Assembly (NCBI GenBank): GCA_050575255.1
Contig: JBNZDD010013665.1
Coordinates: forward strand, 1,882,016 to 1,946,015
DNA: 64,000 nt
Source: Harriotta raleighana
Lineage: Eukaryota
Direction of reading: 5' to 3'
The notes beneath the pieces are model-generated. The model searched no databases, was not told where the DNA came from, and worked only from the letters and a program-made list of their open reading frames with translations. Shown piece by piece: positions 62,459 through 62,972 of the stretch. The position numbers and the translations under genes are program-made. Every line of letters begins with the position of its first letter. Position 1 is the stretch's first letter.

Positions 62459-62698
62459 CTACAAACAGAGAAACAGCAACGGACAGGTAAGCACAGTGGA
62501 TTGGGGTGAGTTTTGCGGGAAGGGGGTGGGGGGTGGTGGGTGGTGGTGGTGGGGGGGGCGGTAAGAGAGGGTGCGGGAAGTGTCCGATACGGTTTGCGGG
62601 TATCTTGGTATTCCAGGAATAAAAGCAATTTTAACAAAATCTGATACGAAAGGCGAATTTTAAATACATCTATATATATGTATAAAATGTCCAGCAAC

Positions 62699-62707
62699 CT
62701 CCTCCAT
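62699..62707 (-). CDS. Candidate alternative first exon (exon 1-beta-like), coding MEE
   Basis: ATG GAG GAG|GTTGCT, phase 0, 240 bp upstream of the phase-0 PR exon; first ATG downstream of the TATA-like box. Confidence 0.55.
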
Positions 62708-62889
62708 CTGTTTGTTTGTACTTCAAGCTCTGAAGTGAGTGAGGGAGTGGGAGTGTGTCGAGATCTCGCAAGAGATGGGTTCGCTAAATGTCTCTCTTTC
62801 TCCCTCTCTCTTTCTCCGTGCTCACTCTCTGCCTGTCACCAACTCCTTTGCTGTTTCGGATGTGTGAGTGCTGCTCTCAGTCAGTCCAG

Positions 62890-62972
62890 AGTTATTTATG
62901 AGCTGCCTGCCACTCATGACAGATTGGGTGACATCATTACGTTGCCAGTTACTTGATTCGGTGGGCGGGGCT
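62890..62972 (-). promoter_or_regulatory. Candidate internal promoter of the PRDM1-family gene
   Basis: In transcription order: GC box CCCCGCCC (62963-62970), CRE-like TGATGTCA (62929-62936), CCAAT (62923-62927), CATAAATA (62893-62900). Confidence 0.55.

Follow-up and report, generated by a model that had tools for sequence, protein, structure and literature searches.

Within the PRDM family, PRDM2 (RIZ1/RIZ2), PRDM3 (MDS1-EVI1/EVI1) and PRDM16 use an internal start to produce a PR-less form which opposes the full-length one. These pairs involve other genes and other exon positions and, to our knowledge, are not homologous to the exon described in this work. The closest described system is human PRDM1beta. 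The available text of PMC7522722 places human exon 1beta within intron 3 of PRDM1 and gives MEK as the residues it encodes; in the accessible parts of the same source and of PMC8829541, PRDM1beta is described as a protein which keeps DNA binding and represses poorly. The exon analyzed here, preceded by a putative promoter, differs in that it encodes MEE and resides in the paralogue prdm1b/znf683. The accessible text of PMC7662092 presents fish prdm1b as the ancestor of mammalian ZNF683/Hobit, dates the duplication before chondrichthyans, and puts the loss of the SET/PR domain down to fast evolution; the terms 'isoform' and 'alternative promoter' have 0 occurrences in it. The fish prdm1b of that text and the gene of the present window are the same gene, and share the PREP/CRYBG2 synteny. 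A direct orthologue from Callorhinchus milii (V9KCB2/XP_042194711) is also 662 aa long, starts with MEE, and is 92% identical. A search which covered subscription journals only to a small extent found no paper that deals with how old the isoform switch is, or that describes a beta form of prdm1b/ZNF683. The human isoform is known, and fish isoforms are present, unrecognised, in RefSeq and UniProt.

The window, as the whole stretch of DNA analyzed is called here, is 64,000 nt of the Harriotta raleighana genome (G000:C13665:1882016-1946015). Synteny and trees make the gene it carries prdm1b/znf683 (Hobit), and not PRDM1. Exons of PREP (prolyl-oligopeptidase) reside ~50 kb upstream of the gene, and five crystallin-domain exons 3-9 kb to the left of the window belong to a gene called CRYBG2 from position only. 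A paralogous PR exon, 68% identical to that of the window, is found on C13617, with ATG5 at 57 kb and a crystallin-domain gene of its own. The arrangement reported in the available text of PMC7662092 is the same, prdm1b/znf683 lying beside PREP/CRYBG2 and PRDM1 beside ATG5. A quick tree places the window protein as the sister of C. milii prdm1b (SH-aLRT 100). The careful tree, made of 26 rows, the window row and three long-branch rows being omitted, shows a PRDM1 clade (100/99) including chondrichthyan and bony-vertebrate members, with C. milii prdm1b outside. Since sharks and bony vertebrates fall together in the PRDM1 clade, the duplication predates their split. The prdm1b clade has a support of 89/85, not starred, in the careful tree and of 58 in the quick tree, and the prdm1b node is likewise unsupported in the accessible part of PMC4760075.

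Other genes have been noticed in the surroundings. Two single-exon claudin genes (PF00822; window 28187-28903 and 31119-31826, minus strand) reside between prdm1b and the crystallin-domain gene. Two long ORFs of 661 and 325 aa (window 3291-5273 and 6648-7622, minus strand) have no Pfam match, and the former has no match in the protein-cluster atlas as well; judged from position, they probably represent large N-terminal exons of the CRYBG2-like gene. Elsewhere in the genome, PR-like matches at G000:C11184:7750-7905 and C7295:550-702, within open frames of 2191 and 2557 aa, are intron-poor PRDM-type genes on short contigs.

The mini-exon resides inside intron 3, between the exon ending in FWR and PR exon 4, 240 nt before the latter (Table 1). 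The intron is 3083 nt long, and exon 3 ends 1542 nt past the window edge. When ATG-GAG-GAG is joined in silico to exons 4-7 by the phase-0 acceptor TGTAG|ATC at 62458 (minus strand), a frame of 662 aa stays open through the zinc fingers, and the predicted beta protein matches C. milii V9KCB2 without gaps at 610 of 662 residues. Exons 2 and 3, translated together with exon 4, give 182 stop-free residues, 170 of which are identical to the C. milii alpha form. Alpha exons 2-3 being intact, the gene is able to encode both alpha and beta forms, and is not a PR-less Hobit of the mammalian type. On the PR profile PF21549 (123 positions) the beta form of C. milii covers positions 48-122, the alpha form 6-122; the predicted beta product thus has no N-terminal PR part, about 47 of the 123 profile positions being lost.

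Table 1. Features of the prdm1b/znf683 gene in and next to the window (window coordinates unless a contig is given)
Feature	Position	Strand	Basis
GC box CCCGCCC, putative promoter element	62963..62969	-	motif scan
CRE-like TGATGTCA, putative promoter element	62929..62936	-	motif scan
CCAAT, putative promoter element	62923..62927	-	motif scan
CATAAATA (62900-62893) with upstream flank	62893..62911	-	likeness to published human exon-1beta primer, suggestive only
ATG-free stretch, putative 5' UTR of exon 1beta	62708..62892	-	motif scan
ATG GAG GAG (Met-Glu-Glu), coding part of exon-1beta homologue	62699..62707	-	C. milii proteins MEE|IYSAG
Phase-0 intron, 240 nt; donor GAG|GTTGCT weak, acceptor TGTAG	62459..62698	-	teleost counterpart 265 nt
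Exon 4 of prdm1b/znf683, C-terminal part of PR domain	62206..62458	-	profile and splice join
Exon 5, proline-rich region and first zinc finger	54861..55909	-	splice join
Exon 6, zinc fingers	54420..54548	-	splice join
Exon 7, zinc fingers, C-terminus, stop	53332..53880	-	splice join
Alpha exons 2 and 3	C13665 1951443-1951270 and 1947676-1947557 (beyond the window's right edge)		no stop

The original prediction had described motifs in promoter order, a leader free of ATG, and ATG GAG GAG|GT separated by 240 nt from exon 4, and each of these elements is present where it had been placed. ATG is absent between 62917 and 62707 on the minus strand, as it is by chance in 9% (234/2496) of the window tiles of 193 nt. 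In 184 kb there are 27 instances of CCAAT with a TATA-like word after it, and one of the complete four-motif order, a pattern defined post hoc. Its two strands taken together, the window holds 117 copies of ATG-NNN-NNN-GT and one of ATG-GAR-RAG-GT. The donor GAG|GTTGCT, already regarded as only moderate in the prediction, is weak, ranking 55th among the 158 GT sites of the intron according to a crude weight matrix. Each by itself, the motifs are weak evidence; it is the homologues that give the decisive support. Ahead of the putative promoter, intron 3 carries a 19-nt repeat in about four tandem copies, each including a CCAAT (window 63430-63510).

Exon 4 finds its best match in C. milii V9KCB2, an entry which starts MEE|IYSAG and which we take to derive from cDNA sequencing. 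The same start is present in four of the five members of the C. milii cluster, RefSeq XP_042194711 included; the fifth, 757 aa long, is an alpha form annotated as 'zinc finger protein 683'. Three residues placed directly on exon 4 have been found in 54 of 526 stored proteins (MAE 28, MEQ 13, MEK 7, MEE 4, MAM 1, MQK 1); as the 526 are a non-random set, matches listed by the searches with one representative per 90% cluster, these counts are not frequencies. On the prdm1b side the starts are MEE, MEQ, MEK and MAE, found in chimaera, sharks, rays, coelacanth, lungfish, bichir and teleosts, and carriers include Heptranchias, Narcine, Leucoraja, Amblyraja, Rhinoraja, coelacanth, lungfish, reedfish and teleosts; seven of the 28 MAE records have been placed on the tree, the others being assigned by similarity. 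On the PRDM1 side, MQK is found in Carcharodon, and MEK in coelacanth, two turtles, tuatara, galago and human. Five of these seven carriers are on the careful tree (shark MQK; coelacanth, turtle, tuatara and galago MEK), and the coelacanth MEK record is present in nr and eukprot only. The original prediction is borne out by three-residue starts in both paralogue clades, chondrichthyans and coelacanth included, and by C. milii records whose N-terminus is identical to that of the predicted splice product.

The majority of the matching proteins are predicted RefSeq or Ensembl models, whose start can be inherited from homologues. In the skate cluster, for which 15 of 31 members are listed, the MEQ start is found in 9 of 11 listed Logan members, assembled in contigs of 1.9-2.6 kb. 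Contigs of this size barely exceed the coding sequence, and are therefore spliced, providing evidence independent of gene models. Thus, the spliced short form is seen in relatives, both in Logan contigs and in C. milii records. Genomic DNA points the same way, since a teleost contig (L023) carries ATG GCA GAG|GTGATT 265 nt upstream of the same acceptor. Among 274 alpha-type junctions, an insertion was found in one only, a 'hypothetical protein' model, which argues that the mini-exon acts as a first exon and not as a cassette.

In the same cluster of skates and rays (P0007), the two remaining listed Logan members are alpha forms, and in two skates the RefSeq short form is labelled X1. The principal product of prdm1b in skates and rays may be the beta form, the counts referring to distinct sequences and not to expression.

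On the PRDM1 side the short form is unevenly distributed. The Carcharodon MQK record is the only one among 28 members of four chondrichthyan PRDM1 clusters, and no short form was found in ray-finned-fish PRDM1a/c among the records retrieved. In intron 3 of PRDM1 of the H. raleighana genome, none of the 228 GT sites has an ATG three codons ahead of it. The same intron (G000:C13617, L002 about 1925-2035, minus strand) carries a strong donor CAG|GTAACT, third in rank of 228, located 172 nt before exon 4, and TATAAATA is found 110 nt upstream of it. No in-frame ATG precedes this donor; an ACG lies two codons up, and GTG and TTG further up. The site may be either an exon 1beta whose start codon has been lost, or a first exon without coding sequence. 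In six invertebrate Blimp-1-like loci (L025, L031, L035, L037, L039 and L043) an acceptor falls at the codon used by vertebrate exon 4, and the intron hosting exon 1beta is therefore much older than vertebrates. In the upstream DNA of these loci ATG-NNN-NNN-GT occurs 0, 0, 0, 1, 5 and 0 times, numbers indistinguishable from chance.

No significant conservation of the putative promoter DNA emerged in the one teleost intron compared: 138 of 500 shuffles score as high as the window promoter DNA against L023. The best local match between the two (window 62913-62883, L023 1638-1668) sits at a similar distance from the ATG, and was discarded as a sign of conservation because 331 of 1798 control tiles (18%) equal it. 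The window intron has no significant alignment either with the teleost prdm1c-like locus L027, or with the PRDM1 intron of the same genome (327 of 500 shuffles reach its score). One of the published primers for human exon 1beta matches the window with a score of 22, reached by 6 of 1176 tiles of 300 nt, the self tile included; allowing for roughly seven primers, the likeness falls at about 3-4% and is suggestive only. Since the primer lies inside the human transcript, CATAAATA may be part of the 5' UTR instead of a TATA box. Were transcription to start upstream of 62940, the 5' UTR would include CATAAATA and gain three short upstream ORFs.

Taken as a whole, the data are best accounted for by a mini-exon which is the exon 1beta of prdm1b/znf683, with an intron-3 promoter yielding a product which carries MEE on exon 4, and with a switch inherited from the pre-duplication ancestor. 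We assign to this reading a probability of about 0.8. An internal promoter ~160-270 nt upstream of the ATG would start transcription within intron 3, bypassing exons 1-3, and the three codons of exon 1beta would be spliced onto exon 4, giving a zinc-finger repressor of 662 residues. The predicted product would keep the zinc fingers, hence DNA binding, and the proline-rich co-repressor region, and would be missing the front of the PR domain. If it resembles human PRDM1beta in function, its repression would be weaker, and it would occupy the same sites in competition with the alpha form. As three-residue starts are found in both paralogue clades, chondrichthyans and coelacanth included, the PR+/PR- switch most likely predates the PRDM1/ZNF683 duplication, as had been proposed. 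A single gain before the duplication, with the exon lost later in some PRDM1 lineages, is a simpler account than the gain, twice over and in one intron, of an exon of exactly three similar codons.

Two gains are nonetheless conceivable. The prdm1b exon could be real, and the mini-exons of PRDM1 and prdm1b could have converged in the same intron, or reflect gene conversion. The missing alignment between the window intron and its PRDM1 counterpart would fit this scenario, as would the single chondrichthyan PRDM1 record and the failure to see any in ray-finned-fish PRDM1a/c, and phase 0 and a short leader are the only requirements for such an exon to arise. Yet exactly three codons, encoding similar residues (M, E/A/Q, E/K/Q), are found in both clades, in sharks as in coelacanth, and the window region resembles the human exon-1beta primer; we hold convergence to be unlikely. 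Less probable still is that the exon is ancestral but disused in this species because of a decayed donor. The donor is off consensus at +3, +4 and +5, and the PRDM1 copy of the same genome seems to have lost its ATG, but the teleost donor GAG|GTGATT is also non-consensus, and the window has an open frame, a leader free of ATG, and three codons encoding the same residues as in C. milii.

The nine bases could also be an internal cassette micro-exon of the alpha transcript, as an AG directly precedes the ATG and CAG|ATG GAG GAG|GT is formally a 9-nt exon. That AG lacks a pyrimidine tract, however, the teleost has AC at the same place, and, apart from the one alpha-type insertion mentioned above, all records start at this Met, which makes a cassette very improbable. 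That the motif occurs by chance, and the database isoforms are annotation carried over from human PRDM1beta, is hardly credible. Records are mostly predicted models, and every motif is common; but the junction is present in Logan contigs assembled from sequencing runs, residue differences between lineages track the species tree, and an exon is found at a similar distance in teleost genomic DNA.

An ancestral exon 1beta in prdm1b/znf683 bears on the origin of Hobit. The original prediction viewed it as a possible route by which the mammalian protein lost its PR domain, and this part stands only in so far as lungfish, caecilian and gharial models go, turtles retaining the whole PR domain. The longer of two lungfish ZNF683 models has a MAE start on a decayed exon 4: its PF21549 score is 26.4 bits (cut-off 27), versus 100 in coelacanth and 130 in turtle ZNF683, and its identity to coelacanth is 29/72 over the PR part, as against 101/110 over the zinc fingers. 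The alpha half is also missing from two caecilian models and from one model of gharial, in which exon 4 is more diverged (29, 39 and 31 of 72); none of the three has an M-x-x start, and the missing exons may be annotation gaps. Because turtle ZNF683 retains a full PR domain, any PR loss would have occurred more than once. Full-length queries are dominated by zinc-finger arrays, and 6 of the 150 matches listed were single-stretch PRDM1-family matches, four of which led to the lungfish, caecilian and turtle ZNF683. No mammalian, bird, squamate or lamprey records labelled ZNF683 or prdm1b were found among the best 120 matches per protein search, and the protein-cluster atlas returned only generic PR clusters, all below 0.9. 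The N-terminus of human Hobit presumably holds a decayed exon-4-like stretch, to be taken as a lead only. Tentatively, and at slightly less than even odds, Hobit might be a fixed beta isoform: ZNF683 would have dropped the alpha promoter and exons 1-3 and kept the exon-1beta promoter, the half-PR decaying thereafter. The ancestral Blimp-1 gene would already have had the PR+/PR- switch, and PR losses would perhaps have been several and independent, in lungfish, caecilians, crocodylians and mammals. If this is true, the promoter of mammalian Hobit would be a paralogue of the PRDM1beta promoter which is de-repressed in myeloma.

In the papers considered here, PRDM1beta figures as a human isoform whose interest lies mainly in myeloma and lymphoma. 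That both paralogues have retained it, across sharks, coelacanth, lungfish, teleosts and amniotes, suggests a normal function which selection has maintained since before the diversification of jawed vertebrates. Expression assays and knock-outs of fish prdm1b may mix two proteins. Teleost prdm1b, in turn, offers in its exon 1beta a model in which the short form alone is removable, and exon 1beta provides a testable route to the PR-less Hobit.
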